DNA from: Longimicrobiales bacterium
Lineage (GTDB): Bacteria > Gemmatimonadota > Gemmatimonadetes > Longimicrobiales > Gaopeijiaceae
Length of the DNA: 64,000 nucleotides
Assembly: GCA_965116905.1 (NCBI GenBank)
Contig: OZ220732.1
Location: 3,808,001 to 3,872,000, forward strand
Direction: 5' to 3'
The first letter of the stretch is position 1, and the number at the start of each line of letters is the position of its first letter. Shown in pieces: positions 40,251 through 55,647 of this stretch. Made by a program: the position numbers and the translations under genes. The notes beneath the pieces were generated by a model that was given only the letters and a program-made list of their open reading frames with translations, was not told the DNA's origin and did not search any database.

Positions 40251-40300
40251 TTGACAGCGTGCGACTCGCCCCCGCACTTTGTTCGGCAACCGAACAAAGT
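40251..40300 (+). promoter_or_regulatory. Sigma70-like promoter (TTGACA-N18-CACTTT) overlapped by a palindromic operator ACTTTGTTCGG-CAA-CCGAACAAAGT (40276-40300)
   Basis: Perfect 11-3-11 palindrome; an identical element occurs on the opposite strand at 51827-51876; a ROK regulator gene lies in the locus. Confidence 0.85.
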
Positions 40301-40373
40301 CAGGGAAGTGGTGCTCCGGGACTCAAGGCATCGGGCGGTCCCCGGAGGTATCCGCTCAACGCGGGATGGAAAC

Positions 40374-42326
40374 ATGACAGCGAGCGCCTCAGATCGGCCG
40401 ACAGTCGCGCCCCGGTCAACCTACGGCGGAATGCGCGTCGCCATTCGAGCGGCCGTGCCGGTCATGGTCCTCATCGGCGCCGCCAGCTGTGAACGGGATA
40501 TCGCCACGCTCGATCCTGCTCCGTTTCCCCCGGAAGCGGAGGTCTTCTACGACGGCTTCGGTCCCGGAGTGCAGTTCTCGGCCTTTGGCGGCTCCAAGGT
40601 CGACGCCCTGGCCATTGAGCACGACGAGGTCTACCGCGGGACCGCCGCACTCAAGTTCACGATACCCGCGCCCACGGATCCCTCCGGCGGCTACGCCGGC
40701 GGCGTCTTCTACTCCGAGGTGCCCCGCGACCTCACCGGCTTTGACGCGCTCACCTTCTGGGCCAGGGCAAGCACTGCGGCCACGGTCAACACCATCGGGA
40801 TCGGCAACGACAACACCGGCGGTTCGCGCTATCCCGCCACGATCGAGGGGCTTCCTTTCTCCACGCGCTGGACGAAGTACGTCGTCCCCTTTCCGCTTCC
40901 GTCCAGGTTGGGCCAGGAGACCGGCCTCTTCCTGATCGCGGAGGGTTCCGAGTACCCGGTCGGCTACGACATCTTCTTCGACGACGTGCAGTTCGAGCGG
41001 CTCGGGACGATCATCAACCCGAGGCCCGCCATCGCGACACAGACGGTAAACGGTGAAGTGGGAGGGACGCTGTCGGTCGGCGGCACGCAGGTGACCTTCG
41101 ACGTCGGCGGCAAGGACCAGACGGTTCTTGCGGCTCCGGCCTACTTCACCTTCACCTCTTCCAATTCGGGAGTGGCCTCGGTGACCCCGGACGGCTCGAT
41201 CTCGCTGATTTCGTCGGGCACCGCCACGATCACCGCCACTCTGGGCTCCACCGCCGCCGCGGGTGCGGTCACCGTCAACGTCACGGCGCCCCCCACGGGC
41301 GCGCCTCCCACTCCCGCGCATCCGGCCGGAGACGTGATCTCCCTGTTCAGCGACGCCTACGATGATGTCCCGGTCGACACCTGGTCGGCGGTCTGGGACC
41401 AGGCGGACGTCGAGGACATCCGGGTCGCCGGCAACCCGGTCAAGAAGTACACCAACCTGGCCTACGCCGGCATCGAGTTCACCTCGCAGCCGATCAACGC
41501 AGCGTCCATGACCGAACTCCACGTCGATCTCTGGACCAACGATCCTTCCGCTTTCCGGATCAAGCTGGTCGACTTCGGAAGCAACGGGGTCTTCGGAGGC
41601 GGCGACGACACGGAACACGAGATCACCCTCGATCAGGGCTCGATGCCACCCATCGCCGCCGGAGCCTGGAACACCCTCGACATCCCGCTCTCGGCCTTTA
41701 CGGGTCTCCTGAACCGGGGCAACCTGGCGCAGATGATCATCTCCGGATCCAGCCCGACCGTCTACCTGGACAACATCTACTTCTTCACCACCAAGCCGCC
41801 TCCGCCGAGCGCGCCCAGCGAGGCCGCCCCGACGCCGACGCACGCCGCGACCGACGTTGTGTCGCTCTTCAGCGACGCCTACAAGGACGCGGCCGTCGAT
41901 ACGTGGTCGGCTTCCTGGGACCAGGCCGATGTCGAGGATGTGCAGATCGCGGGCGACGCCGCCAAGAAGTACAGCAACCTGGTCTTCGCCGGCATCGAGT
42001 TCACCTCGGCGACGCTCGACGCCACCGGGATGACGCACTTCCACATGGATCTCTGGACGCCGGATCCAACGGCAGACCCGTCGGCCTTCCGGATCAAGCT
42101 CGTCGACTTCGGTCCCGATGGCGGCTTCGGCGGAGGGGACGACACCGAACACGAATTGACGTTGAATGCAATGTCCGATCCGCCGCTGGCGACGGGAATG
42201 TGGGTGAGCTACGACATTGTCCTGACGGCGTTCACGGGGCTGACGACACGCGGGCACCTTGCCCAGATGATCATCTCCGGTGATCCGAACACGGTGTTTA
42301 TCGACAACGTGTACCTGCACAAGTAA
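40374..42326 (+). CDS. Carbohydrate-binding lipoprotein: CBM-like domain, Ig-like (Big_2) domain, two tandem CBM-like repeats
   Basis: Lipobox AASC; DLTGFDALTFWARA; FTSSNSGVASV...GTATITAT; two repeats of about 174 aa (VISLFSDAY...YAGIEF...FRIKLVDFG...DNIYF). Alternative start 40430. Confidence 0.8.
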   Translation: MTASASDRPTVAPRSTYGGMRVAIRAAVPVMVLIGAASCERDIATLDPAPFPPEAEVFYDGFGPGVQFSAFGGSKVDALAIEHDEVYRGTAALKFTIPAPTDPSGGYAGGVFYSEVPRDLTGFDALTFWARASTAATVNTIGIGNDNTGGSRYPATIEGLPFSTRWTKYVVPFPLPSRLGQETGLFLIAEGSEYPVGYDIFFDDVQFERLGTIINPRPAIATQTVNGEVGGTLSVGGTQVTFDVGGKDQTVLAAPAYFTFTSSNSGVASVTPDGSISLISSGTATITATLGSTAAAGAVTVNVTAPPTGAPPTPAHPAGDVISLFSDAYDDVPVDTWSAVWDQADVEDIRVAGNPVKKYTNLAYAGIEFTSQPINAASMTELHVDLWTNDPSAFRIKLVDFGSNGVFGGGDDTEHEITLDQGSMPPIAAGAWNTLDIPLSAFTGLLNRGNLAQMIISGSSPTVYLDNIYFFTTKPPPPSAPSEAAPTPTHAATDVVSLFSDAYKDAAVDTWSASWDQADVEDVQIAGDAAKKYSNLVFAGIEFTSATLDATGMTHFHMDLWTPDPTADPSAFRIKLVDFGPDGGFGGGDDTEHELTLNAMSDPPLATGMWVSYDIVLTAFTGLTTRGHLAQMIISGDPNTVFIDNVYLHK

Positions 42327-42387
42327 CCCGCCCGGCCGAACGGCTGCGCGAGGCCGGGGACGAGCTGGCGGCAAGGAGGCCGGCGAC

Positions 42388-43605
42388 ATGGAGGAGACGA
42401 GATCGGTACGGGCTGCCCCCCCTGCCTCGGACGGGAACCTTGCGACCACGGTCCTCAACCTCGTATGGAAACGTCGCGAACTCTCACGTGCCGAGATCGC
42501 CCGCCACACCGGGCGCTCGCGTTCCACGATCTCCGAAGTCGTCGCGCGGCTGCTCGACACCGGGCTGGTCGAGGAGGTGGGCAGCGGGGAGAGCAGGGGC
42601 GGACGGCGCCCCATCCTGATCGGGTTCCGGGACGGCGCCGGGGTCATTCTCGGCGTCGACCTGGGCGCGACCCACGTCTCCGTCATCCTGACCGATCTGC
42701 GGGGATCGGCGCTGGCGTGGCACGACCGAGCCTACCCGGTGCGCACCGATCCCGGCGGCGCGGGGAAGCTCGTGGTGGAACTGTGCCGCGACTGCGTTAC
42801 GGAGTGGAACGGGGACAGCCGACTGTTGATGGGCATCGGGGTGGCCGTGCCAAGTCCGGTCGATCCGGAATCTCCGGATCGCGTGCTGGAGCGCATCCAC
42901 CCGGCATGGCGGGGGCGCGCAATCCTGGACAGGCTCGACGCATCCTTCGGCGCACCCGTTTTCGTCGACAACGACGCCAACCTCGGTGCGGTGGCCGAAC
43001 GCTGGTGGGGCAAGGCGCAAGGCGTGGACGACTTCATCTACCTGAAGGTCGCCACCGGGGTAGGTGCCGGTCTCATGATCGGCGGGGAGATATACCGCGG
43101 CTCGACGGGAGTGGCCGGCGAGATCGGCCACATCGTGGTCGACCCCAGCGGCCCCGAATGCGTGTGCGGGAGTCATGGCTGCCTGGCCACATTCGTGGGC
43201 ACCGGGGCCTTGGTCGAAAGGACCAGGGACCTTCTCCGAAGCTCGCCCCCAAGCACCCTGGCCGGCATGGACCTGAACATCAGGATCATCGAAGAAGCGG
43301 CGCTGCGGGACGATCCGGTGGCTCTCCGGGTCGTGCACGAAGCAGCTCATCACCTGGGCATCGCCCTGGCGGGCCTGCTCAATCTGCTGAATCCCGGATC
43401 AGTTGTAGTTGGGGGCAGCCTCGCCCGCGCCGGAGACCGGCTGCTGCTTCCGCTACGCGAGGCCGTGCTTCGGCGCACCCTCGTCACTTCGGCAGCCGCC
43501 GCCGAAATCGTCGTGAGCGAACTGGGGCCTCGCGCCACGGCATTGGGCGCGGCGACACACGTCCTGGTCGCCGCCCTCGCCGACCCCAGCCTCTTTCCGA
43601 AGTGA
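42388..43605 (+). CDS. ROK family transcriptional repressor
   Basis: N-terminal HTH LSRAEIAR.TG.SRSTIS, GGRRP, GVDLG, DNDANLGA.AE, AGEIGH, CVCGSHGCL; AAGGAGG RBS. Confidence 0.95.
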   Translation: MEETRSVRAAPPASDGNLATTVLNLVWKRRELSRAEIARHTGRSRSTISEVVARLLDTGLVEEVGSGESRGGRRPILIGFRDGAGVILGVDLGATHVSVILTDLRGSALAWHDRAYPVRTDPGGAGKLVVELCRDCVTEWNGDSRLLMGIGVAVPSPVDPESPDRVLERIHPAWRGRAILDRLDASFGAPVFVDNDANLGAVAERWWGKAQGVDDFIYLKVATGVGAGLMIGGEIYRGSTGVAGEIGHIVVDPSGPECVCGSHGCLATFVGTGALVERTRDLLRSSPPSTLAGMDLNIRIIEEAALRDDPVALRVVHEAAHHLGIALAGLLNLLNPGSVVVGGSLARAGDRLLLPLREAVLRRTLVTSAAAAEIVVSELGPRATALGAATHVLVAALADPSLFPK

Positions 43606-43611
43606 ATTGGC

Positions 43612-44466
43612 ATGATCGCCATCCAATCCGAACGGTGCCGCGGCCTCCGTGATCCGGGGGGCCCGCGCGGTCTGGTCATTGTTCCTTTGCTCGGTATGGC
43701 TCTGACCGCCTGCGACGATGGCACGACCGTAAACGAGGTTTCCTGGGAACTTGCCTGGAGCGACGAATTCGAGGGTCCCGCCGGCCAGCTTCCCGACCCG
43801 GCCAAGTGGGCCTTCGACATCGGCACCGACTGGGGCAACGCCCAGCTGGAATTCGACACCGACCGGCCCGAGAACGTGTCTCTGGACGGGAGCGGCAACC
43901 TGGCCATCACCGCACGCCGGGAATCCTATCAGGGCAGCGCGTACACGTCCGGCCGGATCAAGACGCAAGGGCTCTTCGAGCAGGCGTATGGCCGTTTCGA
44001 GGCACGGATCCGGCTCCCCACCGGGCAGGGTATCTGGCCCGCCTTCTGGATGCTCGGCAACGACATCGACGCGGTAGGCTGGCCGCAGTGCGGCGAGATC
44101 GACATCATGGAATACCGGGGTCAGGAGCCGAGTCTGGTGCTCGGCACCGTGCACGGACCCGGCTACTCCGCGAGTGCGGGAGTCACCGGCCGCTACGCCC
44201 TGTCCGGAGCGCGCTTCGACACCGGCTTCCATGTTTTCTCGATCGAGTGGACGGACGAGGACATCAAGTGGTTTGTCGACGGTGAGCACTACCACACCGT
44301 GGGTCCCGGCGACACCGGCGGCGAATGGGTCTTCGACCATCCCTTCTTCATCCTCCTCAATGTCGCGGTGGGCGGTGGCTTCGTGGGACCGCCCAACGAA
44401 TCCACGTCCTTCCCCCAGACCATGCTGGTCGACTGGGTGCGCGTCTACCAGAGCGACCGGGAATGA
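43612..44466 (+). CDS. GH16 laminarinase-type endo-beta-1,3-glucanase (lipoprotein)
   Basis: WSDEF, YTSGRIKT, YGRFEARI, WPAFWMLG, WPQCGEIDIME catalytic motif, LNVAVGG; lipobox LTAC. Confidence 0.93.
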   Translation: MIAIQSERCRGLRDPGGPRGLVIVPLLGMALTACDDGTTVNEVSWELAWSDEFEGPAGQLPDPAKWAFDIGTDWGNAQLEFDTDRPENVSLDGSGNLAITARRESYQGSAYTSGRIKTQGLFEQAYGRFEARIRLPTGQGIWPAFWMLGNDIDAVGWPQCGEIDIMEYRGQEPSLVLGTVHGPGYSASAGVTGRYALSGARFDTGFHVFSIEWTDEDIKWFVDGEHYHTVGPGDTGGEWVFDHPFFILLNVAVGGGFVGPPNESTSFPQTMLVDWVRVYQSDRE

Positions 44467-46571
44467 CCTCTCGCGGCGACACCCGGCCCCGGGACCGCAT
44501 ATCATTCCCGCACAAGGTCGCCTATGGGATTGGCGGGTTCGTCAACAACCTGCTGGCCTCGGCGATCGGCGGGATGACGATCATACTCACTCTGGCTTTG
44601 GGTGTCAGTCCCGCGCTCGTCGGACTGTTGGGGGCCCTTCCACGCATCTTCGACGCGATCACCGATCCCCTCGTGGGATTCATTTCCGACAACACGAAGT
44701 CGCGCTGGGGGCGCCGGCGGCCCTACATCTTCGCCGGGGCCATCTTCACCGGGATCGTGTTTGCGCTCCTCTGGCAGATTCCCGCCCCGGCACAGTTTCG
44801 CCTCAAGCTCGTGGACTACGGCGCGGACGGCATCTACAGCGGTCCACACGCGGTCCAGGAAACCGAGACGGTGGGTGTCGCACAGGCCGTTCGAGGCCGA
44901 ATGGGGGGTGCCCGGCGAATGGACGATGTCGAGCACGAGGTGACCATAATCCCCCCGACCCTTGTCACGGGCCAGTGGGTCGGCATCGACGTCCCCCTGG
45001 CAAGCTTCGACCAGTTGACCACGCGCGACCACCTCGCCCAGATCCTGATCTCGGGCGATCTGGAAAACGTCTACGTCGACAACATCTATCTCTACCGGGA
45101 AGAAGATGCAGGAGAGGGCGCGGCCGCGCCGGCGCTCGAAGACGTAGAGGGAGCGACGGAGCCGACGACCGCCGCGCCGGAGCCCACGCGACCGGCCGAG
45201 GACGTCATTTCCTTCTTCAGCGACGCCTACGACGATGTCCCGGTCGGGTATTTCTCCACGGACTGGGACCGGTCGGACGTGGAAGACGCGTTCGCGGGCG
45301 GCGATCCCGTCAAGCACTACTACAACCTTCGCTTCGCAGGGATCGACTTCGGCGAGCAGACGGTGGACGCCACCGCAATGACGCACGTGCATCTCGACAT
45401 CTGGACGCCCGACGCGACGCCCGAGGGCCGGAGCGACATGTACTACTTCTGGTACTTCCTGATCGGGTCGCTGATCTTCTTCCTGGGCTACACGGTCTTT
45501 GCCACGCCCTGGGTTGCGCTCGGCTATGAGCTGACGCCCGACTACAACGAGCGCACGCGGCTGATGGGCGTCCAGAACTTCATCAGCAACTTTGCGTTCA
45601 TCATCGCTCCGTGGTTCCTGGTGATCATGACGAATCCGGACTGGTTCCGTAACCAGATCGACGGCGCCAGGTTCCTCGCACTGATGATCTGCATCGCGAC
45701 GGTCGCCCTGGGCGTCCTTCCCGCCGTCTTCCTGCGCGAACGCCTTGCGCCGACGCCCGAAGCCACCCGGGCTCGAGCCGACGCGCCAGCCGGAAGCAAG
45801 GGGCTCGGCGCGAACGTCACCGAGTTCCTGTCAGGCCTGTTGAAGACCGTCAAATCCGGGCCGTTTCTGCTGCTGTGCCTCGCGACCTTCCTGATCTTCA
45901 ACAGCTTTATCATGATCTCGTCGTTCCAGATCTTCGTGTTCATCTACCACATTTCCGAGGGAAGCCAGGTGAACGGCGCCTGGCTCGCCGGCATAGTGGG
46001 TACGGTGGGGATGGTGGCGGGTTTCGGGGCCATCGTTGTGGTCACCTGGCTGGGCACCAGGATCGGAAAGCGGAGGGCGTTCTTCGTCTCGACGGCCATT
46101 TCCATGCTCGGCTACGCGTTGAAATGGTTCTGTTACCGCCCCGAGTACCCCATGCTGGCTCTCGTGCCCGCGCCCTTCCTCGCGTTCGGCCTGAGCGGAC
46201 TCTTCACCCTGATGGGTTCGATGATCGCGGACGTGGTGGATCTGGACGAACTCGGGAACATGGACGCCCAGGGACGAAGCCAGCGACGGGAAGGGATGTT
46301 CGGCTCCATCTACTGGTGGGTCGTCAAGGTCGGTCAGGCGGCAGCGATCGGACTCGGCGGACTCCTCCTGGTCGCAACCGGATTCGATGTCGACCTGGGA
46401 GCCAACCAGGGGGCGCAAACGCTCGTCCTGATGCGCGTCTTCGACGCCTTCATCCCCCTGGCCGCATCCGGTCTCGCCATCTACGCGATCGCCAGGTTCC
46501 CGATCACGGAACAGATGGCGCTCCGGACACGCGAGGAACTGGAGCGGCGGCGGGCGGGCGCGGCGGCGTAG
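44463..46571 (+). CDS. GPH-family MFS sugar transporter with an inserted CBM-like domain
   Basis: KVAYGIG, RIFDAITDPLVGFISD..KSRWGRRRP, ELTPDYNERTRL, SMIADVVD, RREG; insertion of about 210 aa after TM3. ATGA overlap with the GH16 stop. Confidence 0.9.
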   Translation: MTSRGDTRPRDRISFPHKVAYGIGGFVNNLLASAIGGMTIILTLALGVSPALVGLLGALPRIFDAITDPLVGFISDNTKSRWGRRRPYIFAGAIFTGIVFALLWQIPAPAQFRLKLVDYGADGIYSGPHAVQETETVGVAQAVRGRMGGARRMDDVEHEVTIIPPTLVTGQWVGIDVPLASFDQLTTRDHLAQILISGDLENVYVDNIYLYREEDAGEGAAAPALEDVEGATEPTTAAPEPTRPAEDVISFFSDAYDDVPVGYFSTDWDRSDVEDAFAGGDPVKHYYNLRFAGIDFGEQTVDATAMTHVHLDIWTPDATPEGRSDMYYFWYFLIGSLIFFLGYTVFATPWVALGYELTPDYNERTRLMGVQNFISNFAFIIAPWFLVIMTNPDWFRNQIDGARFLALMICIATVALGVLPAVFLRERLAPTPEATRARADAPAGSKGLGANVTEFLSGLLKTVKSGPFLLLCLATFLIFNSFIMISSFQIFVFIYHISEGSQVNGAWLAGIVGTVGMVAGFGAIVVVTWLGTRIGKRRAFFVSTAISMLGYALKWFCYRPEYPMLALVPAPFLAFGLSGLFTLMGSMIADVVDLDELGNMDAQGRSQRREGMFGSIYWWVVKVGQAAAIGLGGLLLVATGFDVDLGANQGAQTLVLMRVFDAFIPLAASGLAIYAIARFPITEQMALRTREELERRRAGAAA

Positions 46572-46578
46572 GTCGGCG

Positions 46579-48498
46579 TCAGCGCGGCCCGGCGCCCCGC
46601 CGCTCCTGTCGCGGTCGCAGTGTCTCGCCTCGGACCGCCAGCCCATGGCCCCGGGGAAAGAGGATGTTCTCCCCGCCCGGCCCGGCACCGTTGCCGGTCG
46701 GGTCCGTCGGTGTTCTGCCCGGCCAGGTGGACGACAGCCGCCCCGTGAACTCGTGGTCGCCGAAGAGCACGTCGGCCACGCCCGCGCCCTCCGAGCCAGG
46801 CAGCCACGCCGCGACGAAGGCCGCCGATTCGGCGAGTTCCGCGTCCACCACGAGGGGGCGGCCCGAAATGAGGACCGTGACCACGTGTATGCCGCGCGCT
46901 GCCAGTCTGCGAATGGTGGCGAGGTCCTCGGGGTGCAGGGTGGCAAGCTCCAGGGTCTGTCCATACGGCATGAGCACACCAGGACCTGCGGGCAGGTGGT
47001 TGGCGCCGGGGCGAACGGGGCTCGGGTCCCGGATGTCACCCACCCCCTCGGCGTATGGACGCTCGCCGATGACCACCACAGCCGTATCGAAGTCGTCGGC
47101 CTCGGCGACTGCTCCACCGTTACCGCAGAGCACAGACCCCGGCGCCACATCCCGAATACCCTCCCAGATCGAGGTGCCGCCCGGAACCCTCTCGTTGCCC
47201 GAGATGCCCTGCCATTCGACGGTGAAGCCGCCGCACTGCCGCCCGCGGTCGTGCGCGTTGCGGCCCGTGACCAGAATGCGCGCGCCGCGGCGGAGGGGCA
47301 GGGCGCCGCCCTCGTTCTTGAGGAGCACGAGGGACTTGCGCACCGCTTCCCGGGCGACCTCGCGGTGCTCGCGTGACCCGAAGCCCGCGCCGTCGGCCCT
47401 CCCGCGCAGCGCCGGGCGCGCCTTGTCGAACAGGCCGCTCGCGAGCTTGACCCGCAGGATCCTCGTCACCGCGTCGTCGATCCGCTCGATGGGCACTGCG
47501 CCCCGTTCGACCTGTGAGATCAGCCCCGAGATGAGCTCCCGCCACGTCTCCGGCACCATGAACATGTCGACGCCCGCGTTGACCGCCATCGCCGCGGCCT
47601 CGCCGTAGTCGTCCGCCAGCGGATCGACGCCGTTCCAGTCCGAGACGACGAAGCCGGCAAAGCCCAGTTCACCCTTCAGCACGTCCCGTATCAGGTATCG
47701 GTGTGCGTGGCACTTCGAACCGTTCCAGCTGCTCAGCGAGGCCATCACCGTGAGGACGCCGGCATCGAGCGCGGGGAGGTAGGGTGCGACATGGAGGCGG
47801 CGCAACTCCACCTCGTCGGCGAGCGTGTCGCCCTGGTCCACGCCGGCATCGGTGCCGCCGTCTCCGACCCAGTGCTTGGCGCAGGCCAGAACGCTGTCCG
47901 GACCCGGTCCCGCGAGGCCGTCTCCGCGGCCCGCCTCCTGCAGTCCACGCACGATCCGCGCCGCGTACTCCGCCACCAGCGCGGGATCCTCCGAGTAGCT
48001 CTCGTAGGTGCGCCCCCAGCGCGGATCGCGCGCGACGGCAAGCGTGGGCGCGAAGGTCCAGTCCACGCCGGTGGCCAGCACTTCCAGCGCCGTGACCCGC
48101 CCGATCCGTTCGACGAGATCCGGGTCGCCCGCCGCCCCCAATCCGATGTTGTGTGGGAAAACCGTCGCGCCGAGGACGTTGGCGTTGCCGTGGATCGCAT
48201 CGACCCCGTAGAGGATCGGTATCGCCATGTGGTCCTCGTCCTCTTCCATCGAGGCCGACCAGTACGCGTCGTTCATCGCCACCCAGTCGGCCGGGCGGTT
48301 GCGGCCCGGGCACGAACCGCCGCCGCTCAGCACCGAACCGATGTGGTACGCCTTGACCTGCGCGGGGCTGACGTGCTGCCGTTCCGGCTGCGTCATCTGC
48401 CCGATCTTCTGCGCAAGCGTCATGCGCACGACCAGGTCGCCGGCACGCTCCGCGATCTCGGCCGTGTGGCCGTGGGCGACGCTTGTGAACCCGTTCAC
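46579..48498 (-). CDS. GH3 beta-glucosidase (exo-beta-1,3-glucosidase-like), no signal peptide
   Basis: QKIGQMTQ, GVDAIHG, FPHNIGLGA, RDPRWGRTYES, CAKHWVGDG, FVVSDW nucleophile, SLVLLKN, AAWLPGSEG. Confidence 0.95.
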   Translation of the reverse strand: MNGFTSVAHGHTAEIAERAGDLVVRMTLAQKIGQMTQPERQHVSPAQVKAYHIGSVLSGGGSCPGRNRPADWVAMNDAYWSASMEEDEDHMAIPILYGVDAIHGNANVLGATVFPHNIGLGAAGDPDLVERIGRVTALEVLATGVDWTFAPTLAVARDPRWGRTYESYSEDPALVAEYAARIVRGLQEAGRGDGLAGPGPDSVLACAKHWVGDGGTDAGVDQGDTLADEVELRRLHVAPYLPALDAGVLTVMASLSSWNGSKCHAHRYLIRDVLKGELGFAGFVVSDWNGVDPLADDYGEAAAMAVNAGVDMFMVPETWRELISGLISQVERGAVPIERIDDAVTRILRVKLASGLFDKARPALRGRADGAGFGSREHREVAREAVRKSLVLLKNEGGALPLRRGARILVTGRNAHDRGRQCGGFTVEWQGISGNERVPGGTSIWEGIRDVAPGSVLCGNGGAVAEADDFDTAVVVIGERPYAEGVGDIRDPSPVRPGANHLPAGPGVLMPYGQTLELATLHPEDLATIRRLAARGIHVVTVLISGRPLVVDAELAESAAFVAAWLPGSEGAGVADVLFGDHEFTGRLSSTWPGRTPTDPTGNGAGPGGENILFPRGHGLAVRGETLRPRQERRGAGPR

Positions 48499-48534
48499 AA
48501 TTCGAATTGACGAAGGCGGCAGCCGGTCGTCCCG

Positions 48535-51500
48535 CTACATCCCGATGTGCAGGTAGGTCCGAATCTCCCACTCGCGTCCGTTCTCGCCGCCGAGGTCGGG
48601 GTTGCACTCCATCCTCCCGAAGTCATCGGGCGAGAGCCCCGGACAGTAGCGGGGCGAGAACTCGTTGAGGGTGCGCATCGCAGCCCGTACGCCGAAACGG
48701 GTCTGCGGCATGTCGAACCACTCGGGAGGACCGAGGGTGTACGAGACGTCGCCCACCAGCTGCAGCGGGAAGGTGTGGTTGAAGTCGCGGTGGTAGTCGT
48801 ACGGGCCCCAGTCGTTGATCCGCGCCATCGACTGGAACTTGATCGAGCCGGCGATCAGACGCAGGTCCAGCCCGGCCCGGTTGATCACGCGCTCGTCGCT
48901 GCCGTTGGGTTCTCCCTTGCCCACGAAGACGTTGGCGACAACCCCTGCCGCGGCCGAGCGCTTCGAGACGATCCGCGCCTTGACCTCCCACAGGTCGCGC
49001 GCAGGAGGTGCACCGGGGAACGCGAAGGTCGAGCGGCCGTCGGCGAAGATTCCGATCCCGGCGTCCTGGGTGGTGGGGAAGCTGTAGTACACGAAGCCGA
49101 ACGAGGTCGCGAAGCGCGCGTCCTCGCGAATGTCGCTGTCCCAGGTGTACATCCAGGTGGCGGGGGTCGGGTCGTAGGTGAAGAGGATTTCGGCCGCGCG
49201 GGTCTCGCGGTTGCCCCGGACGGCAAAGGGGTCGTCCAGGATGTTGCGGGGACGTCCCGGGGCCGGGGCATCGGCCGGCACCGGACCCACCAGAGGTTTC
49301 CGCCACAGGAAGTTCGGCGCGACCTGCCAGTTGCCCGAGGTGATCGCGAACCCGGTGATGACGTTGCGCTGGTTGCCGTGCCCCGTGTCCTTCAGCGTCC
49401 ACCCGGTGAAAGTCTGAGTCTGGGTGAAGCCGCCGTCGGCCACGAGGCCCATCGCCGCACCCTGCAGATACCAGCTCAGCCGCCCCCGGGTGAGCGTGAT
49501 CCTGGCCTTCGCCCCCAGTGCGTCCGACGGCTTGATCTCGTCGTGGAGCACCCGGTAGCTGCCGGGCGATCCGTCGACGACCTGGAAGGGCTGCCCTTCC
49601 TTGGTGCTCCCCGACCAGATGCCGCCGACATCGACGATCATGTTGCCGCGGGTCGCGGTCATGTGCAGGGTCGCCTTGCGCGTCGGCGGGAGCGGAATGG
49701 CGAACGAGCTGGCCGCCTTCCCCGCCGCGGCCAGGTCTTCCTGGTAGATGGCCGTCGTCTCGAAGGGCCCGATATTCGTCTGGTACTTGGCCAGGATCGC
49801 CGGGTTGGCTCCCCACCAGAGCTCCGGGCCAATCGCCACCTTCCACCCGCTGAAGGAGCGCTTGCCGGTGATCTCCATCCCGACCGGCGCAACCCCGTTG
49901 TAGATGTCCATGTTGGGCCCGTAGTTGGCCTCCGGGTACAGCCCGAAGAAGTCGCCCTCGTAGCCCCAGTGGTAGTGGCCGGTGCGGTAGAAGCCCTCGA
50001 GGTTGAACCAGCGGTCGTCCCACGAAAAGCTGGCGTTGTAGACCTTGAGCCGCTCGATGTCCTGGAGCTGGAAGGTCTCGCCGTTGTCGGCCTCGATGAC
50101 GCGCGAGCGGCCCCTGTTCTCGTAGAAGAGTTCGTCGATCGGATTCTGGGGAACGTCGCCGAGGATGTTCAGAGAGACGTTCGCGACCATGCTCTGGACG
50201 GGCCTGGCGGCCATGTCCGCATAGAACGACTGCATCTTGTCGAAGCCCCGGTGACTGGGGAAGGAGCGGTTCCGTTCCGGAGCCTCCTCGGGCGTGCTCA
50301 CCAGGCGGCCGCCGGTGCTGAAGGTCTCGAGTTCCGCCCGGATTCCACTCAGGTGAACGCGGTCGCGCGCGGTGGCCAGCAGGGCGGCGCGGTCGCCCAG
50401 GGCCTGCAGGGCGACGTTGGCTGGCTGGATCGAGGCGAAGTGCTGCCGGATGGCCGCAACATCCGTTCCCGGCCCGTACGGATCGAGCCTGTACGCTTCC
50501 TGCAGCGCGTAGTAGGCGGCGCGCGGGTAGAGTTCGTAGAGGTTGTTGTGGTCGGTGGGGCCCTTGGCGACGATCCCCCACCACTCCTCGTTCATGTTGT
50601 TGTCGCCCTCGACGAAGTCCTCCGGATAGGCGTCGTTCGCCCACGAGGCGTTGGTGTCCTGGATGTCCAGCCGGTCCTCCTGGCCGAACTTCCACCACCC
50701 GTCGGTCCACTGGAAGGTGAGACCCCCGATCGAGTTGCCCACGCCCCCCTTCCCGGCGGATTCCTCGTAGATCTCGCGCCACTGCTCGATCAGGTACTTC
50801 GCCTGCGTGACCTGGTCCTCGCGCATGTTCTTCGCGTCCCAGACATCCGCGCCGAACTCGGTGAACATGACGGGGCGGTCGAGCTTGTCGTGCACCTCCT
50901 GGAAGAGGTCCCTGAAGGAGATGCCGCGGTAGACGTTGGTGCCGAAGACGTCCAGGTCGGGGATCTCCTCGGCGATGATGTCGATGTACTGGAGGTCGCC
51001 GTTGGCCATCGCGATCGGGCGCGTGTCGTCCATCTCCTTGATGCGGGCAGCCACATCGCCGAAGAGCGAGTACATGTAGCGCGCGCGCACGGCGTCCGCC
51101 TCGCCTGCGGGCAAGTCCTCGGTCTCGGCCGAACTCCACACCAGTCCGTAGTTGTTCTCGTTGCCCAGCAGCCACATCAGGACGCCGGGAGTGTCCTTGA
51201 AGGCGCTGACCATCTCCTCGATCTCGCCCATCACCACCGCGCGGGCCCGCGGATCCGAGTAGTCCGTGTTGGGGTTGAAGACGCCGCCCACGGTCACGCC
51301 GTAGCGCGCGACCGCGTGGTTCAGGACCGTGTAGATCCCGTACGTCTCGTAGATATGCCGCACCCACTTCGGCGTGATCCCCACATAGGCGCGGATCGCA
51401 TTCCCGCCCATCGCCTTCAGCAGCGACATCTCGCGTTCGAGCGCCGCCTCGATGATGTGGTCGGGCTCGGTCCAGAAGTTGTAGTTGTAGGTGGTGCCGC

Positions 51501-51795
51501 GCGGGAAGTAGTCCCAGTTGACGCCGAGCACCATGATGTCGTCGCCGTCCACCTGGAGACGGGTGCCCGAGTCGTCCGTGACGAGCTCGATGACCGGCAT
51601 GTCGGGCTCGGCGTCCTGCGCCGCACCGGGCGTGGCGGGTGCGAGCGCGAGAACGAGCGCCAGGGCGAGCGCCAGGGCGAGCGCCAGGGCGGAGGCAAGA
51701 GCCGGCGATTCCATCAAGCCGCGCGCGGTGAGCCGCCTCCCCGCGGCTGCGAGCCCGCTGGCGACTCGGGTGATCGGATGGCGGATCGAACTCAT
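48535..51795 (-). CDS. Clan GH-A (GH2-TIM-like) glycosidase fused to a large C-terminal beta-strand-rich (probable beta-barrel) domain
   Basis: Signal peptide; GVNWDY, NAIRAY, LGNENNY (acid/base) and FTEFGAD (nucleophile); C-terminal ~600 aa of amphipathic strands ending WEIRTYLHIGM; GGAGGAG RBS. Confidence 0.8.
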   Translation of the reverse strand: MSSIRHPITRVASGLAAAGRRLTARGLMESPALASALALALALALALVLALAPATPGAAQDAEPDMPVIELVTDDSGTRLQVDGDDIMVLGVNWDYFPRGTTYNYNFWTEPDHIIEAALEREMSLLKAMGGNAIRAYVGITPKWVRHIYETYGIYTVLNHAVARYGVTVGGVFNPNTDYSDPRARAVVMGEIEEMVSAFKDTPGVLMWLLGNENNYGLVWSSAETEDLPAGEADAVRARYMYSLFGDVAARIKEMDDTRPIAMANGDLQYIDIIAEEIPDLDVFGTNVYRGISFRDLFQEVHDKLDRPVMFTEFGADVWDAKNMREDQVTQAKYLIEQWREIYEESAGKGGVGNSIGGLTFQWTDGWWKFGQEDRLDIQDTNASWANDAYPEDFVEGDNNMNEEWWGIVAKGPTDHNNLYELYPRAAYYALQEAYRLDPYGPGTDVAAIRQHFASIQPANVALQALGDRAALLATARDRVHLSGIRAELETFSTGGRLVSTPEEAPERNRSFPSHRGFDKMQSFYADMAARPVQSMVANVSLNILGDVPQNPIDELFYENRGRSRVIEADNGETFQLQDIERLKVYNASFSWDDRWFNLEGFYRTGHYHWGYEGDFFGLYPEANYGPNMDIYNGVAPVGMEITGKRSFSGWKVAIGPELWWGANPAILAKYQTNIGPFETTAIYQEDLAAAGKAASSFAIPLPPTRKATLHMTATRGNMIVDVGGIWSGSTKEGQPFQVVDGSPGSYRVLHDEIKPSDALGAKARITLTRGRLSWYLQGAAMGLVADGGFTQTQTFTGWTLKDTGHGNQRNVITGFAITSGNWQVAPNFLWRKPLVGPVPADAPAPGRPRNILDDPFAVRGNRETRAAEILFTYDPTPATWMYTWDSDIREDARFATSFGFVYYSFPTTQDAGIGIFADGRSTFAFPGAPPARDLWEVKARIVSKRSAAAGVVANVFVGKGEPNGSDERVINRAGLDLRLIAGSIKFQSMARINDWGPYDYHRDFNHTFPLQLVGDVSYTLGPPEWFDMPQTRFGVRAAMRTLNEFSPRYCPGLSPDDFGRMECNPDLGGENGREWEIRTYLHIGM

Positions 51796-51826
51796 GGCTG
51801 CACTCCTCCCCGGCGGGCCCCGAATT

Positions 51827-51876
51827 ACTTTGTTCGGTTGCCGAACAAAGTGCGCGGCGGTTCGGGTCTCTGTCAA
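51827..51876 (-). promoter_or_regulatory. Second copy of the TTGACA-N18-CACTTT promoter plus 25-bp palindromic operator (51827-51851)
   Basis: Reverse complement reads TTGACA gagacccgaaccgccgcg CACTTTGTTCGGCAACCGAACAAAGT; the operator is identical to 40276-40300. Confidence 0.85.
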
Positions 51877-51940: not shown

Positions 51941-53314
51941 TCAAGAGCGTGTTCGGCACATCGCCCCAGGCGGATGCCTGATCTGGGCTCTACCAGCCGC
52001 TGTGATGCGGAAACGCTGCTTCGGGCTGCGTGGCTTTTCGGGGGTCGTCATCTCTATCCAACCTGCGCCCAGGCACGGATCCAAGTACCGCTCCTTAAGG
52101 TTCCCCCGACTTCTGAGACCCAAGGCAGCAAGGATATCCTTTCGCGTCATCTCCCCGGACATCTCACGGAGCAGTCGCATGGGCAACTCCCCAGGGACGG
52201 GCCCGTCTGCCTGGGATACATAGCCGGGTTCCGAGACACTCTTGTGGTCGCTTTCCGTCGGCACACCCTCTCGGACGGCGGATACACCTGGACCGGCTTC
52301 GTGCTCGGAAGCGAAGAGCGGCAAATCGTCAGTCGGCTCGATGGGCCTCGAAACCGGTGATTCGTCGTAGCACAGGAGCGCTTGGAGTTCAGATGGATCC
52401 TTCGGCTCCGGCCAAGGACGAGCGTCCCGCTCAACCAGCGCATCAAGTCCCGCGCACGGCTCTCCACCACGCCGGACATATACCGGCACGTAACCAAGCT
52501 TGTCCAGCTGCTCGGTCGCCCCCGTCCAGGTGCCACCATGCCCATGATCCGATTTCACAACCAGCGCCGCGTCCGCCAGCGCATAGATCTGCTTGTTGCG
52601 TTCCATCGCCTGCCAACCCCGGAACCGGACTGCCGGATCGAAGGAAGAGACCATCACCAGGCGCCCGTCCATCAGGGGCTCTCGATTCCCTCGGTGCAGC
52701 GCCGCACGCTCCAGGCCATTCCCCAGTACGCCGACCGCGCGGCCACCCTCCTTCAAGGATCCTCGCATCGCAGCCTGATCGACGCCTCGGGCGCCGCCCG
52801 ACACGATCGGCACATCCGCCTCAGCTGCCAATTGCCCAATGCGCTCCGCGTAGTCAACGAGCTCATCGTTCACGTTTCTCGAGCCCACGACCGCGAGCCC
52901 GCCCTCGTCCAGGCAACCCCGTTCGCCGCAGCCGTACAGGACCGGTGGCGCCTTTCCCTTCATCTTCCTCTTCAGCCGACTTGGATAATCGTCATCGGCC
53001 CTCGTGACCACCCAGATCGCACGTGCACCCCAACGCTCCAGCGCATGAGCCACTAGAAAACCCCGGTCAAGCAGTCGATAAACATCTTCCAGGGTTCGCC
53101 TGATCCCCAACCTGGACCACGAGTTGTCCAGCTCCCTCAAACCTTCGGAATGAAGAAGATCCGCGGGCTGCATGTGGGCGTCGCGAAGGTGCCGCACCAG
53201 ACTGTTGTAGGCACCCAGGGGCAGGGGCTTCACGGAGGTCGGGGATCTGCCGACCAGGAGCGGCGCCGTCAGGAGAAGGATCGCCTGGCCGTTGGCACTG
53301 AGTCCGCCGTTCAT
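51941..53314 (-). CDS. DprA/Smf-domain protein (RqlI-like) with C-terminal winged-HTH
   Basis: YPSRLK..APPVLYGCG, LAVVGSR, IVSGGARGVD, AMERNKQIYALAD, GGTWTGA; C-terminal ILAALGL...RYLDPCL.AGWIEMTTPEKPRSPKQRFRIT. Confidence 0.85.
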   Translation of the reverse strand: MNGGLSANGQAILLLTAPLLVGRSPTSVKPLPLGAYNSLVRHLRDAHMQPADLLHSEGLRELDNSWSRLGIRRTLEDVYRLLDRGFLVAHALERWGARAIWVVTRADDDYPSRLKRKMKGKAPPVLYGCGERGCLDEGGLAVVGSRNVNDELVDYAERIGQLAAEADVPIVSGGARGVDQAAMRGSLKEGGRAVGVLGNGLERAALHRGNREPLMDGRLVMVSSFDPAVRFRGWQAMERNKQIYALADAALVVKSDHGHGGTWTGATEQLDKLGYVPVYVRRGGEPCAGLDALVERDARPWPEPKDPSELQALLCYDESPVSRPIEPTDDLPLFASEHEAGPGVSAVREGVPTESDHKSVSEPGYVSQADGPVPGELPMRLLREMSGEMTRKDILAALGLRSRGNLKERYLDPCLGAGWIEMTTPEKPRSPKQRFRITAAGRAQIRHPPGAMCRTRS

Positions 53315-55647
53315 CAGCTACGCCCTAAAGTCGAGAGTGCGAATGGCCAGACCGTGCCGCCACCGTTTTTGCGCAACAACCAAGCCCCGACCGTCAGGGT
53401 CCAGCGCGAACTGACTATGTCGTCCACGAGCAGCACCGGAGTTGGTCGAACGTGTGGAGCAGAGACCGCGACGGAGTCGTCGACGTTCCGGGCCTGTTGC
53501 ACGGTGTTCTCCATTTCCTTCTGCGGACGACGATCCTCGGTTTTGACGAGAACCGGACGAAACGGCAACTCGAGCTTTCTCGCCAGTCGCTCTGCGAAGT
53601 CGGGCACCAGGTTCGGATTCCGGCGTGATGGAATGCAGGTTACCCAGGTTGGCCGCGGATTCGGACCCCAGCGACTCACCAGCGAAGCGCTTGCGTCAAC
53701 GAGCTCGTCGGCGAATCGTCGGTCCTCCTGTTTACCGCGCTTTACCATCTCTCCCCATCCTCCGTCTCCCCACCGGCACAGTGCTCTTCCGGCTTCGGCT
53801 CGCAATTCCTCCGGAATCTGACCTTCAACGTCGTAGCCCGACAACCCGCCTGTTGGCCACCTCAACCTTGGTTGAATCGGCAGATCGAGGCGGCGCAGAA
53901 AGGCCAGAGCGTCGAGCTCGGTTTGCTGGCTGACCTCGGTTGGAAGCAGTGGCAGCCCCTGAGACCCAATCCCCTCTGGGTCACCGTCGAGTGCACGAAT
54001 CAGAAACTCCATGTGACCGCGTTCCAAGCGCACATACTCCTGCATCTGGCGCTGCTCGTCATAGCGCAGATCGGTCAGACGTTTCACTCGCTCCCAGAAC
54101 GTACTCCTCAGATCGGCAGCAGTCAGCTTCCAATTCGCACCATCCTTCACAATCGGAGGCGGCCGCTCCAGAGACAGCAGCTTCAGAGTAATCGCGATGC
54201 GACCGCTGGTCATGTTCACCTGGTGCTGAAGCCCGTACCGTGACAAACCGTCAGAAGTCGTCTCCAGCGCTCCGATCAGCTGTTTCACCTCTTGGGGCGT
54301 GGGAAACGAGCTAGTGATGAAGTAGTCGGTGATGTCGGTTTCCTCGTCGCCGCTCAACAGGACGCCATAGGCATTATCGAGCGCCCGGCCGGCACGACCC
54401 ACCTGTTGATAGTATGCCACCACGGACGCTGGTGTCTGGTAGTGGATGACAAAGCCCAGGTCTGGCTTGTCGAAACCCATCCCCAGAGCGACGGTGGCGA
54501 CGAGGGCTTTCACACGGTTGTCTAGCAGTTCCTGCTCAAGCTGTTCGCGTTCCTCTGGCTCCATTCGCCCGGTATATGCTTTGGCATCGATGCCTCGCGA
54601 CTGGAGCCAGTCCGCAACCTGTTCGGCATCGCCCACGGTCAGCGCGTAGATGATTCCGTGACCGGGAATCCGAGGGAGTTGCTCGGCCAGCCACGCCAGC
54701 CGCTGGGCCTGCGGTGGCAGACGTATGGTCTGTAGGGTAAGCGACGGACGCGCCAGGGGCCCCCGCTGGACCCTTAGATCGCGTCCAAGCAACTCGTGCA
54801 GGTCGGCCATCACGCGGTTGGTGGCCGTGGCCGTAGTTGCCAGCAGTCGCATGTTCGCCGGCAGTGCCCGGGCCGCACGCTCTATGAGTTGATAGTCCGG
54901 CCGGAAGTCGTGTCCCCAGTCCGATATGCAGTGACATTCGTCGATCACAAGCAGGGAGATGCGGCCGGCAATCCCCGCAAGTACCTGGTCTCGAAAGCGC
55001 TCATTGGCAAACCGTTCCGGCGCGATGAGCAGGATGTCGACCTCGTCGCGGTCCAATCCGGCCTCGACCTCAGGCCACGCTTCCGTGTTGTCCGATGTAA
55101 TTCTGGCCGCACGGACTCCCATTCGCTCAGCGGCCAGAATCTGGTTGCGCATCAAGGACAGCAACGGCGAGACGAGCAGGGCCGGACCTCTCCCCGCTTC
55201 CCGAAGAAGCCTGGTCGCAATGAAATAGACGAAGCTTTTTCCCCACCCTGTCCTCTCCACAACCAGCAATCGGCCTCGGCCGTCTACCACATGGCGGATC
55301 GCCTCTTCCTGGCCGGGGCGGAAGCTGGCATCCGCAATGCCGGTGCCCCGCCGCAGGAGGTCGAGGGCTCGCAACGGACGGTAGGTCACCGGCTTGCTGC
55401 CAGCGATGCTACGGAGAGCTTGCTCAATGTCGCGAATGTCGTCGGATGACAATTCGCTGGGCAGCGCCTCGAGGTTGGGCCGGACGACCCGTTTCAGGAA
55501 GGTTGCGATCCTCGCCTCGGACGCGACCACCAGACGGACCCTGTCCTCCGGCACCGAGCCCTGCCAGCGGTCCGAATGAACGATCAGGCCCAGCGTACGA
55601 TGGCGACCCACCCAGTACTCGTGTCCGTCAATCTCTACCCCTTGCAT
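53314..55647 (-). CDS. RecQ-family helicase with C-terminal phosphoribosyltransferase-like domain (RqlH-like)
   Basis: FRPGQEEAI, RTGWGKS, DECHCISDWGHDFRPDY, ATTATA, ALGMGFDKPD, YYQQVGRAGR; C-terminal LLVDDIVSSRWTL. Confidence 0.9.
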   Translation of the reverse strand: MQGVEIDGHEYWVGRHRTLGLIVHSDRWQGSVPEDRVRLVVASEARIATFLKRVVRPNLEALPSELSSDDIRDIEQALRSIAGSKPVTYRPLRALDLLRRGTGIADASFRPGQEEAIRHVVDGRGRLLVVERTGWGKSFVYFIATRLLREAGRGPALLVSPLLSLMRNQILAAERMGVRAARITSDNTEAWPEVEAGLDRDEVDILLIAPERFANERFRDQVLAGIAGRISLLVIDECHCISDWGHDFRPDYQLIERAARALPANMRLLATTATATNRVMADLHELLGRDLRVQRGPLARPSLTLQTIRLPPQAQRLAWLAEQLPRIPGHGIIYALTVGDAEQVADWLQSRGIDAKAYTGRMEPEEREQLEQELLDNRVKALVATVALGMGFDKPDLGFVIHYQTPASVVAYYQQVGRAGRALDNAYGVLLSGDEETDITDYFITSSFPTPQEVKQLIGALETTSDGLSRYGLQHQVNMTSGRIAITLKLLSLERPPPIVKDGANWKLTAADLRSTFWERVKRLTDLRYDEQRQMQEYVRLERGHMEFLIRALDGDPEGIGSQGLPLLPTEVSQQTELDALAFLRRLDLPIQPRLRWPTGGLSGYDVEGQIPEELRAEAGRALCRWGDGGWGEMVKRGKQEDRRFADELVDASASLVSRWGPNPRPTWVTCIPSRRNPNLVPDFAERLARKLELPFRPVLVKTEDRRPQKEMENTVQQARNVDDSVAVSAPHVRPTPVLLVDDIVSSRWTLTVGAWLLRKNGGGTVWPFALSTLGRS

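Follow-up and report, generated by a model that had tools for sequence, protein, structure and literature searches.

A candidate ROK-regulated beta-1,3-glucan utilisation locus of a Longimicrobiales bacterium encodes a predicted enzyme-outer-membrane barrel fusion and no SusC/SusD pair

The locus described here lies in a window of 64,000 nucleotides (nt) of a Longimicrobiales bacterium (GCA_965116905.1, contig OZ220732.1, positions 3,808,001 to 3,872,000 of the forward strand; the window means this whole stretch). The host genome is a single contig of 4.21 Mb, 97% complete; the closest named kin of the window proteins are Longimicrobiales and Candidatus Palauibacter metagenome-assembled genomes (MAGs; 66-91% identity), and the habitat of the host is probably marine. 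Six genes form two convergent operons (Table 1): on the plus strand, a lipoprotein with predicted carbohydrate-binding module (CBM) folds, a ROK-family protein, a GH16 glycoside hydrolase and a symporter of the major facilitator superfamily (MFS); on the minus strand, a secreted fusion of a TIM-barrel enzyme with a predicted outer-membrane barrel, followed by a GH3 enzyme. The GH16 and MFS genes overlap by ATGA, and 7 nt (46572-46578) separate the operons; a generic promoter and terminator scan found no terminator at this point and also missed both promoters. A preliminary description of this DNA had proposed the six open reading frames (ORFs) and their meeting at 46571/46579, all of which we confirm; the span of 40251-51876 that it assigned to the locus is bounded by TTGACA boxes rather than by gene starts, which probably lie at 40374 (or 40431) for the lipoprotein and at 51795 for the fusion. 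The flanks are unrelated, with a sodium:sulfate symporter upstream and DprA-like and helicase genes past 51876.

Table 1 Features of the locus, with positions in the window. aa, amino acids; HTH, helix-turn-helix; E-values are given after the matched family or structure.
Feature	Positions	Strand	Details
Promoter-operator of the plus operon	40251..40300	+	TTGACA 40251-40256; palindrome ACTTTGTTCGG-N3-CCGAACAAAGT at 40276-40300
CBM-fold lipoprotein	40374..42326	+	lipobox AASC, Cys codon 40488
Tandem CBM-fold repeats of the lipoprotein (~170 aa each)	~41289-41798, ~41814-42323	+	predicted structure
ROK-family repressor (putative)	42388..43605	+	winged HTH and ROK domain; ROK+HTH 1.9e-57
Putative laminarinase-type endo-beta-1,3-glucanase, GH16	43612..44466	+	lipobox-like LTAC; EIDIME intact
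GPH/MelB-family symporter, 702 aa	44463..46571	+	MFS_2 2.8e-52, split by insert
Symporter insert, residues 109-321	44787..45425	+	loop after third predicted helix, predicted periplasmic
Putative exo-beta-glucan glucohydrolase, GH3, ExoP/barley ExoI type	46579..48498	-	3usz 7.8e-155
Secreted fusion, 1086 aa	48535..51795	-	predicted signal peptide, TIM barrel, linker helix, outer-membrane barrel
Predicted ~24-stranded outer-membrane beta-barrel	~48541-50358	-	C-terminal 600 residues of the fusion
Clan GH-A TIM barrel, GH157/GH158-related	~50419-51603	-	N-terminal part of the fusion
Promoter-operator of the minus operon	51827..51876	-	TTGACA 51876-51871; operator stretch 51853-51827

Both promoters carry the same 27-nt stretch (40274-40300; 51827-51853), which holds a perfect 11-3-11 palindrome; in the plus operon this palindrome overlaps the predicted -10 box. 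The two promoter-operator units had been called identical, which is true of TTGACA and of the 27-nt stretch and not of the spacer (80% alike over 51 nt). Within five mismatches of the operator, these two are the sole sites in the genome (shuffled sequences, 0, 1 and 0). A matrix built from 68 homologous sites (training minimum, 27.9 bits) gave 44.8 bits to both, 12.9 to the next genomic site and maxima of 7.0-20.5 in shuffled sequences. In the preliminary description, the same operator before a distant TonB-dependent receptor was named as an observation that would speak against the proposal; the matrix scan of the genome found none near any of the 36/36 TonB-receptor ORFs, the best score there being 3.2 bits. 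Two loose matches to TTGAC plus the operator with five mismatches fell outside the top 15 matrix scores and were discarded.

Related loci were compared in the 80 best-ranking of at least 598 hits in genomes, with flanks of up to 10 kb; gene content was tallied in the 47 loci whose downstream flank reaches at least 9.9 kb, the 33 shorter ones being left out. The promoter-operator unit is present in 52/80 loci (reversed-sequence control, 1/80), from Gemmatimonadota, Krumholzibacteriota, Eisenbacteria, Ignavibacteria and Myxococcales, and the spacing of 25-27 nt between TTGACA and operator recurs in them. It accompanies the ROK gene in 23/23 of the tallied loci that have one and is absent from 20/24 of those that do not, a count in which kin are not independent; L008, L009 and L016, all from Gemmatimonadota, have neither. 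The ROK protein scores under the NagC and Mlc equivalog cut-offs and is thus neither of these; it shows the marks of a ROK repressor (an HTH at the N-terminus, the ROK domain and a palindrome lying over a promoter), and it presumably binds this operator. Repression is the likely outcome, since an operator over the -10 box is the usual geometry for it, and the shared sites predict co-regulation of the two operons.

Operator-like sites were also followed in relatives. A wider regulon was considered and rejected: 11 extra sites in genome G015 and two regions each in G019 and G024 have no TonB receptor within 4 kb and lie mostly in or beside unrelated genes, with TTGACA upstream of one at a non-matching spacing. 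A sub-group of same-genus genomes (G015, L085-L095; G027; G020; G011) holds 8-15 operator-like palindromes (reversed control, 0), many of them inside coding genes (methyltransferase, gamma-glutamyltranspeptidase, molybdopterin enzyme); where alignable, the window genome has ordinary GC-rich codons at these places, so that the palindromes came about in that lineage through several substitutions, and they are possibly dispersed sites at which the ROK protein, or a different DNA-binding factor, attaches. In G014 (L098), G015 (L096-L097) and G025 the operons are still convergent, with operators 20, 36 and 31 kb apart through inserted DNA; the insert in G015 holds PD-(D/E)XK nuclease and LPD38 genes, and the place where the operons meet resembles an insertion site. 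In the Bacteroidota loci L058, L067, L072 and L076 a Y_Y_Y/propeller regulator adjoins the fusion, replacing ROK protein and operator, with a weak LuxR-type HTH match in those of L058 and L076.

The GH16 protein (Pfam, E 1.9e-25) has the jelly-roll domain and the ExDxxE motif of laminarinase-type enzymes, its closest solved structures are beta-1,3-glucanases (3atg, E 1.3e-76), and it is the sole GH16 copy found in the genome; GH16_3 is common in marine Gemmatimonadota (PMC11316326). The GH3 protein (Pfam, E 2.6e-80, plus GH3_C) has the SDW nucleophile motif, is nearest to a Pseudoalteromonas exo-1,3/1,4-glucanase and barley ExoI, and is predicted to be cytoplasmic because no signal peptide is visible. 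The fusion matches the GH2_C TIM-barrel family (Pfam, E 4.4e-12); assignment to GH2 was rejected, as the TIM-barrel domain alone matches and beta-galactosidase models reach 15-26 bits where cut-offs are near or above 1000. The best sequence match of the enzyme domain is GH158 (E 6.9e-6 over 157 residues; 18-22% identity), Foldseek ranks 1-10 are all GH157/GH158, and VIA Z-scores are 27.9 for GH157 (root-mean-square deviation [rmsd] 3.0, 311 aligned) and 26.7 for GH158 (rmsd 3.1, 291 aligned), near ties with GH2 (26.9) and GH5 (26.8). Its catalytic glutamates (NE and TEFG motifs) align with those of GH158 and are invariant in 96/96 homologues; together with the (beta/alpha)8 fold, the acid/base (NE) and nucleophile glutamates are those of clan GH-A, and the domain is described here as GH157/GH158-like, its catalytic glutamates being intact. 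The endo-beta-1,3-glucanases of GH158 (9oro, 6pal) and GH157 (9fz9) share with it the TIM barrel and the aligned catalytic glutamates and are its top structural matches, whereas the C-terminal module of the fusion is a membrane barrel of ~600 residues instead. No GH30 was found in the genome, and one GH17 query likewise had no match. The relatives of all three enzymes (GH16, GH3, GH157/GH158-like) point to beta-1,3-glucans as the substrate; the preliminary description had named GH16 with GH3 as the usual pair for laminarin degradation.

The barrel was modelled with AlphaFold2 as part of the fusion (predicted local distance difference test [pLDDT] 80.8; predicted template modelling score 0.74) and has 24 long strands, most with one hydrophobic face. 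Of its even-numbered turns, 9/11 have 2-6 residues, and odd-numbered loops have 7-37 residues; this pattern of short and long loops predicts a barrel whose N- and C-termini are both periplasmic, which would place the enzyme domain beneath the pore. A signal peptide, amphipathic strands in even number and alternating loops are what one expects of an outer-membrane barrel. Outer loops are conserved like the enzyme (means, 0.67 and 0.69), and the outer loops 5, 7 and 21, rich in W, Y and H, reach 0.85-0.92. No Pfam family covers the barrel domain; in the Atlas it lies next to clusters without a name and to DUF6029, at 0.93. It differs from a TonB-dependent transporter, the barrel of which has 22 strands (PMC13543919), in that ~24 predicted strands follow a TIM-barrel enzyme without a plug; none of the 38 genome matches to PF00593 falls at the fusion. 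Covariation (358 homologues, effective number ~140) did not recover strand neighbours and did not place the enzyme on either side, and Cys992-Cys1005 was the sole standout pair. The barrel family has at least 5016 homologous proteins; 469 cluster representatives were matched, the long ones mostly of 1000-1100 aa. Nine distant homologues of 560-615 aa (P0151, P0159, P0160, P0182, P0192, P0193, P0203, P0207, P0214), in which the barrel is mostly matched, have 10-120 residues before it and may be stand-alone barrels or truncated records.

The lipoprotein is modelled (pLDDT 93) as a CBM8/CBM30-like beta-sandwich, a Big_2 immunoglobulin (Ig) domain and the two repeats. Structural Z-scores are 13.2 for CBM8 (rmsd 2.9 over 139 residues) and 12.6 for CBM30 with the N-terminal domain, 11.2 for the Ig domain and 11.6-11.8 for the repeat, which is CBM11-like; a CBM30 profile match is weak (E 0.06), and Pfam gave a sub-cutoff Big_2 match only. 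The label CBM used in the preliminary description for this protein and for the symporter thus has no Pfam support and agrees with the predicted fold, a CBM beta-sandwich. The repeat profile had no meaningful sequence match in the PDB, and its Atlas neighbours (0.85-0.87) are leads only; CBM102, considered for the repeat, was dropped, there being no PDB sequence match and no literature under that term. By its model the protein is of the surface-glycan-binding type, unlike SusD. Across L001-L080 its length past the lipid cysteine ranges over ~430-1290 aa as the tandem repeats vary in number, the N-terminal domain being single; some loci have a second gene, of repeats only or of PKD repeats.

Fusion and lipoprotein travel together. 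The tallied loci contain the lipoprotein in 45 cases, GH16 in 43, the MFS protein in 30, ROK in 23 and GH3 in 22; among 40 relatives, the 16 genomes that have the fusion gene are also those that have the lipoprotein gene, and 2 of them carry both in duplicate; and in Bacteroidota the lipoprotein gene comes directly after the fusion. A predicted complex of the barrel with lipoprotein residues 1-270 scored 0.53 (best of three controls, 0.00), its runs sharing at least 63% of contacts and the partner having pLDDT of at least 86. The mark set for this score is reached by 116/157 solved and 2/215 mismatched pairs, of which 18/157 and both mismatches stand at 0.60 or less. Docking of the lipoprotein on the barrel is weakly supported by this model, which was counted as modest support because co-occurrence makes the prior high.

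The symporter has the 12-helix MFS_2 core of the GPH family and is related to MelB and MFSD2A (TIGR00792, 144.6 bits; cut-off, 231), alignment with which puts its insert after the third predicted helix. The insert joins the latter half of lipoprotein repeat 1, through a linker, to the first half of repeat 2 (40% identity, E 1.4e-41), and so reads as a circularly permuted repeat taken from across the tandem array of the lipoprotein. It is acidic (41 D+E, 13 K+R), as would suit a periplasmic loop. Such an insert is present in 8/39 MFS homologues of the loci, all from Gemmatimonadota MAGs, and in all 120 best database homologues, with W172, Y256, Y286 and W314 conserved at 98-100%. The MFS-GH17 fusion of Formosa is a precedent for a soluble carbohydrate-related domain joined to an MFS protein of a laminarin locus; the insert of the present symporter is different, a CBM-fold repeat that is circularly permuted, non-catalytic and placed in a loop predicted to be periplasmic. 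In an Ignavibacteriaceae MAG, one frame (L047:1319-4723, minus strand) has both MFS and GH3 matches, a possible transporter-glucosidase fusion reminiscent of the one in Formosa.

No TonB receptor, SusD or ABC component was found by Pfam and NCBIfam in the six proteins, as the preliminary description had noted. Across the 80 related loci (40 with both 10-kb flanks complete), a TonB receptor occurs in 1/80, and the same queries detected 4/4 SusC controls from Bacteroidota. The locus thus lacks the SusC/SusD tandem pair of a Bacteroidota-type polysaccharide utilisation locus (PUL) and has the co-localised carbohydrate-active enzymes (CAZymes), transporter and regulator of one; it works like a PUL yet falls outside SusC/SusD membership. 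The hits (at least 598) span Gemmatimonadota, Bacteroidota, Krumholzibacteriota, Ignavibacteria and others, and the module is a cross-phylum cassette, not a one-off. Carriers in culture include Algoriphagus confluentis, Neolewinella lacunae, Flavilitoribacter nigricans and Flavobacterium species. A sponge metatranscriptome was tried for expression and set aside as no evidence, with 0.08 of words found and contigs mostly less than 95% alike, from mixed relatives.

SusC/SusD loci for beta-1,3-glucans in Bacteroidota (Bacteroides uniformis, with GH16, GH158, GH3 and the surface glycan-binding protein SGBP-B; Flavobacteriia variants A-D, PMC6298971) share with the present locus endo-GH16 plus GH3, a GH158-like enzyme, a multi-CBM lipoprotein of surface-binding type, co-regulation, and one outer-membrane barrel plus lipoprotein. 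Unlike them, the present locus has neither a 22-stranded plugged TonB-dependent barrel nor an alpha-helical SusD; it has ~24 predicted strands, an N-terminal enzyme, an all-beta lipoprotein and, by prediction, final hydrolysis in the cytoplasm after MFS import. Proteins of SGBP-B type, including the Christiangramia laminarin SGBP (bioRxiv 2023.09.07.556657), resemble the lipoprotein in their Ig-like domain, tandem duplicated beta-sandwiches and laminarin locus, whereas the lipoprotein described here has a CBM-fold domain before the Ig domain and is not SusE-positioned.

The closest published counterpart is laminarin PUL 2 of Formosa sp. Hel1_33_131 (Formosa B; PMC6246565), nine listed genes (FORMB_24670-24750) without SusC/D: FORMB_24670 (AOR29484, 117 kDa, 'GH2' or 'hypothetical'), FORMB_24680 (AOR29485, 49 kDa), GH16, a PKD protein (83 kDa), GH149 (131 kDa), GH17, GH30, MFS and GH17. 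FORMB_24670 has a signal peptide and BOMP 1, and makes up 1.19% of the membrane proteome on laminarin against 0.006% on glucose (196-fold), above two laminarin TonB receptors (0.46% and 0.45%); FORMB_24680 is at 0.74% on laminarin and undetected on glucose. The extracellular/membrane split of FORMB_24670 (0.67/1.19) is like that of the TonB receptors (0.22/0.46). Fusion homologues of Bacteroidota are of 117-118 kDa, with a 49-52 kDa lipoprotein next in 8/9 loci examined and then GH16 (L074: 117, 52, 31, 89 and 130 kDa; L066: 118, 50, 31 and 130 kDa, GH17, GH30, MFS). By size and gene order, with no alignment, FORMB_24670 is probably an orthologue of the fusion; no Formosa or Muricauda record was among the distant homologues named by cluster look-up. 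The laminarin PUL of Muricauda (PMC13188888) is syntenic and has 'GH2', and in its accessible part 'SusC' appears in the reference list only. Both are laminarin-induced and resemble the present locus in a first protein of 117 kDa, a 49-kDa hypothetical protein, GH16 and MFS; they have GH17, GH30, GH149 and a LuxR-type regulator, and the two papers, in the parts covered here, label the first gene GH2 or hypothetical without naming a barrel, whereas the present locus has the ROK protein, GH3, the CBM-fold MFS insert and two convergent operons. The cluster type is thus probably in print under the label 'GH2', and the outer-membrane module is undescribed in the literature that could be searched; no description of the barrel, of its pairing with the lipoprotein or of the symporter insert was found there, subscription journals being largely outside reach.

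We judge it very probable that these genes form a co-regulated locus for the utilisation of beta-1,3-glucan, controlled by a ROK repressor. We regard an uptake channel as the best reading of the barrel model, one that we hold to be reasonably probable, and incline, by a narrower balance of the evidence, to a locus that imports and digests beta-1,3-glucans such as laminarin, with fusion and lipoprotein doing the outer-membrane job of SusC/SusD. The ROK protein would cover the -10 box at both promoters until a glucan-derived sugar releases it; the CBM-fold lipoprotein, docked on the barrel and exposed at the surface, would capture glucan, the chains of which the GH16 lipoprotein would cut; oligomers would pass the ~24-stranded barrel, with the conserved aromatic loops as a filter, and on the periplasmic side reach the GH157/158-like domain that is fused to it; the symporter, with its periplasmic permuted CBM-fold domain, would import short oligomers, from which the cytoplasmic GH3 would free glucose.

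Several observations weigh against uptake through the barrel. The periplasmic side of the enzyme rests on strand parity and a general rule for N-terminal domains, and a 19-residue helix (399-417) precedes strand 1, as in autotransporters; the fold leaves the substrate unfixed, GH2 (Z 26.9) and GH5 (26.8) nearly tying with GH157/GH158; barrel and presumed partner sit in different transcripts here; the TonB-receptor tally covers the best 80 of at least 598 hits, with flanks ending at 10 kb. The preliminary description called the locus an alternative to Sus, a term to be used with caution in view of the 36 TonB-receptor ORFs (38 receptor matches) and 14 SusD-like matches elsewhere in the genome, which could import glucan independently of this operator; in our assessment the host uses its Sus-like pairs for other cargo. 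Caution is advised also by Formosa B, which induces two SusC/D pairs on laminarin alongside the probable orthologue. The link to Formosa itself depends on size and gene order, and the predictors used in that paper call FORMB_24680 neither lipoprotein nor signal-bearing.

The helix that joins enzyme and strand 1 suits another role for the barrel, that of an autotransporter-like anchor or secretion pore which displays the glucanase and holds the lipoprotein, with products entering by porins or an unlinked TonB receptor. The many TonB receptors and SusD-like genes elsewhere, and a covariation analysis that put the enzyme on neither side, are compatible with such display. We nevertheless consider it unlikely: classical autotransporter barrels have 12 strands, half of the ~24 here; the outer loops are conserved beyond the needs of an anchor; and the probable Formosa orthologue fractionates like TonB receptors in the published data, with no sign of a released passenger.

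The joint induction of PUL 2 and two SusC/D PULs in Formosa B would also fit a barrel serving as an auxiliary passive porin for short oligomers beside SusC/D, with high-affinity uptake left to a TonB receptor under other control. The barrel shows no evident energy coupling, and glucan dissolved in seawater is dilute, which agree with this role. It appears quite improbable here, as no TonB receptor shares the operator, the sole GH16 of the genome is in this locus, and a receptor lay within the fetched flanks of a single one of the 80 related loci.

Very improbable, finally, is another substrate (mixed-linkage, fungal or host beta-glucan) or the export and trimming of a self-made glucan, which gains from the seeming absence of the usual laminarin debranching set (GH30, GH17), from GH16 relatives that include 1,3(4)-glucanases and from a GH3 best matching a 1,3/1,4 exo-enzyme, and is opposed by the lack of a synthase among the six genes, by a catabolic ROK repressor and importer-type symporter that suit uptake, by Bacteroidota versions that sit with GH17, GH30 and MFS, and by a probable Formosa orthologue that is laminarin-induced.

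Two further observations concern the surroundings of the locus. Adjoining it, 51941-55647 (minus strand) encodes a DEAD-box helicase and a DprA/SLOG-like protein that has a Fic-like domain at its C-terminus, at a GC content of 0.62-0.63 against 0.68, and may be an acquired island. Two CBM9-like/DUF5916 proteins with a carbohydrate-binding domain and a large C-terminus are encoded at 55692-57980 (minus strand) and 1393-3462 (plus strand), with no operator nearby.

One of the major pools of marine carbon consists of laminarin-type glucans, which Gram-negative specialists are said to take up through SusC/D or other TonB receptors. We suggest, tentatively, that fusion and lipoprotein may found a widespread class of TonB-independent importers, in which a pore feeds a fused periplasmic hydrolase and cleavage drives uptake. 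The same class might, as a comparably tentative proposal, be the one labelled 'GH2' among the top laminarin-induced membrane proteins of bloom Flavobacteria, and would here feed a symporter with its own binding domain. Loci without SusC/D or TonB receptors have been set aside as 'CAZyme clusters' (PMC10108472). If the conserved barrel family is a true importer, it would be a second route for glucan that such surveys miss; the locus described here is a minimal six-gene version with a defined operator, and the reading is testable in cultured carriers.

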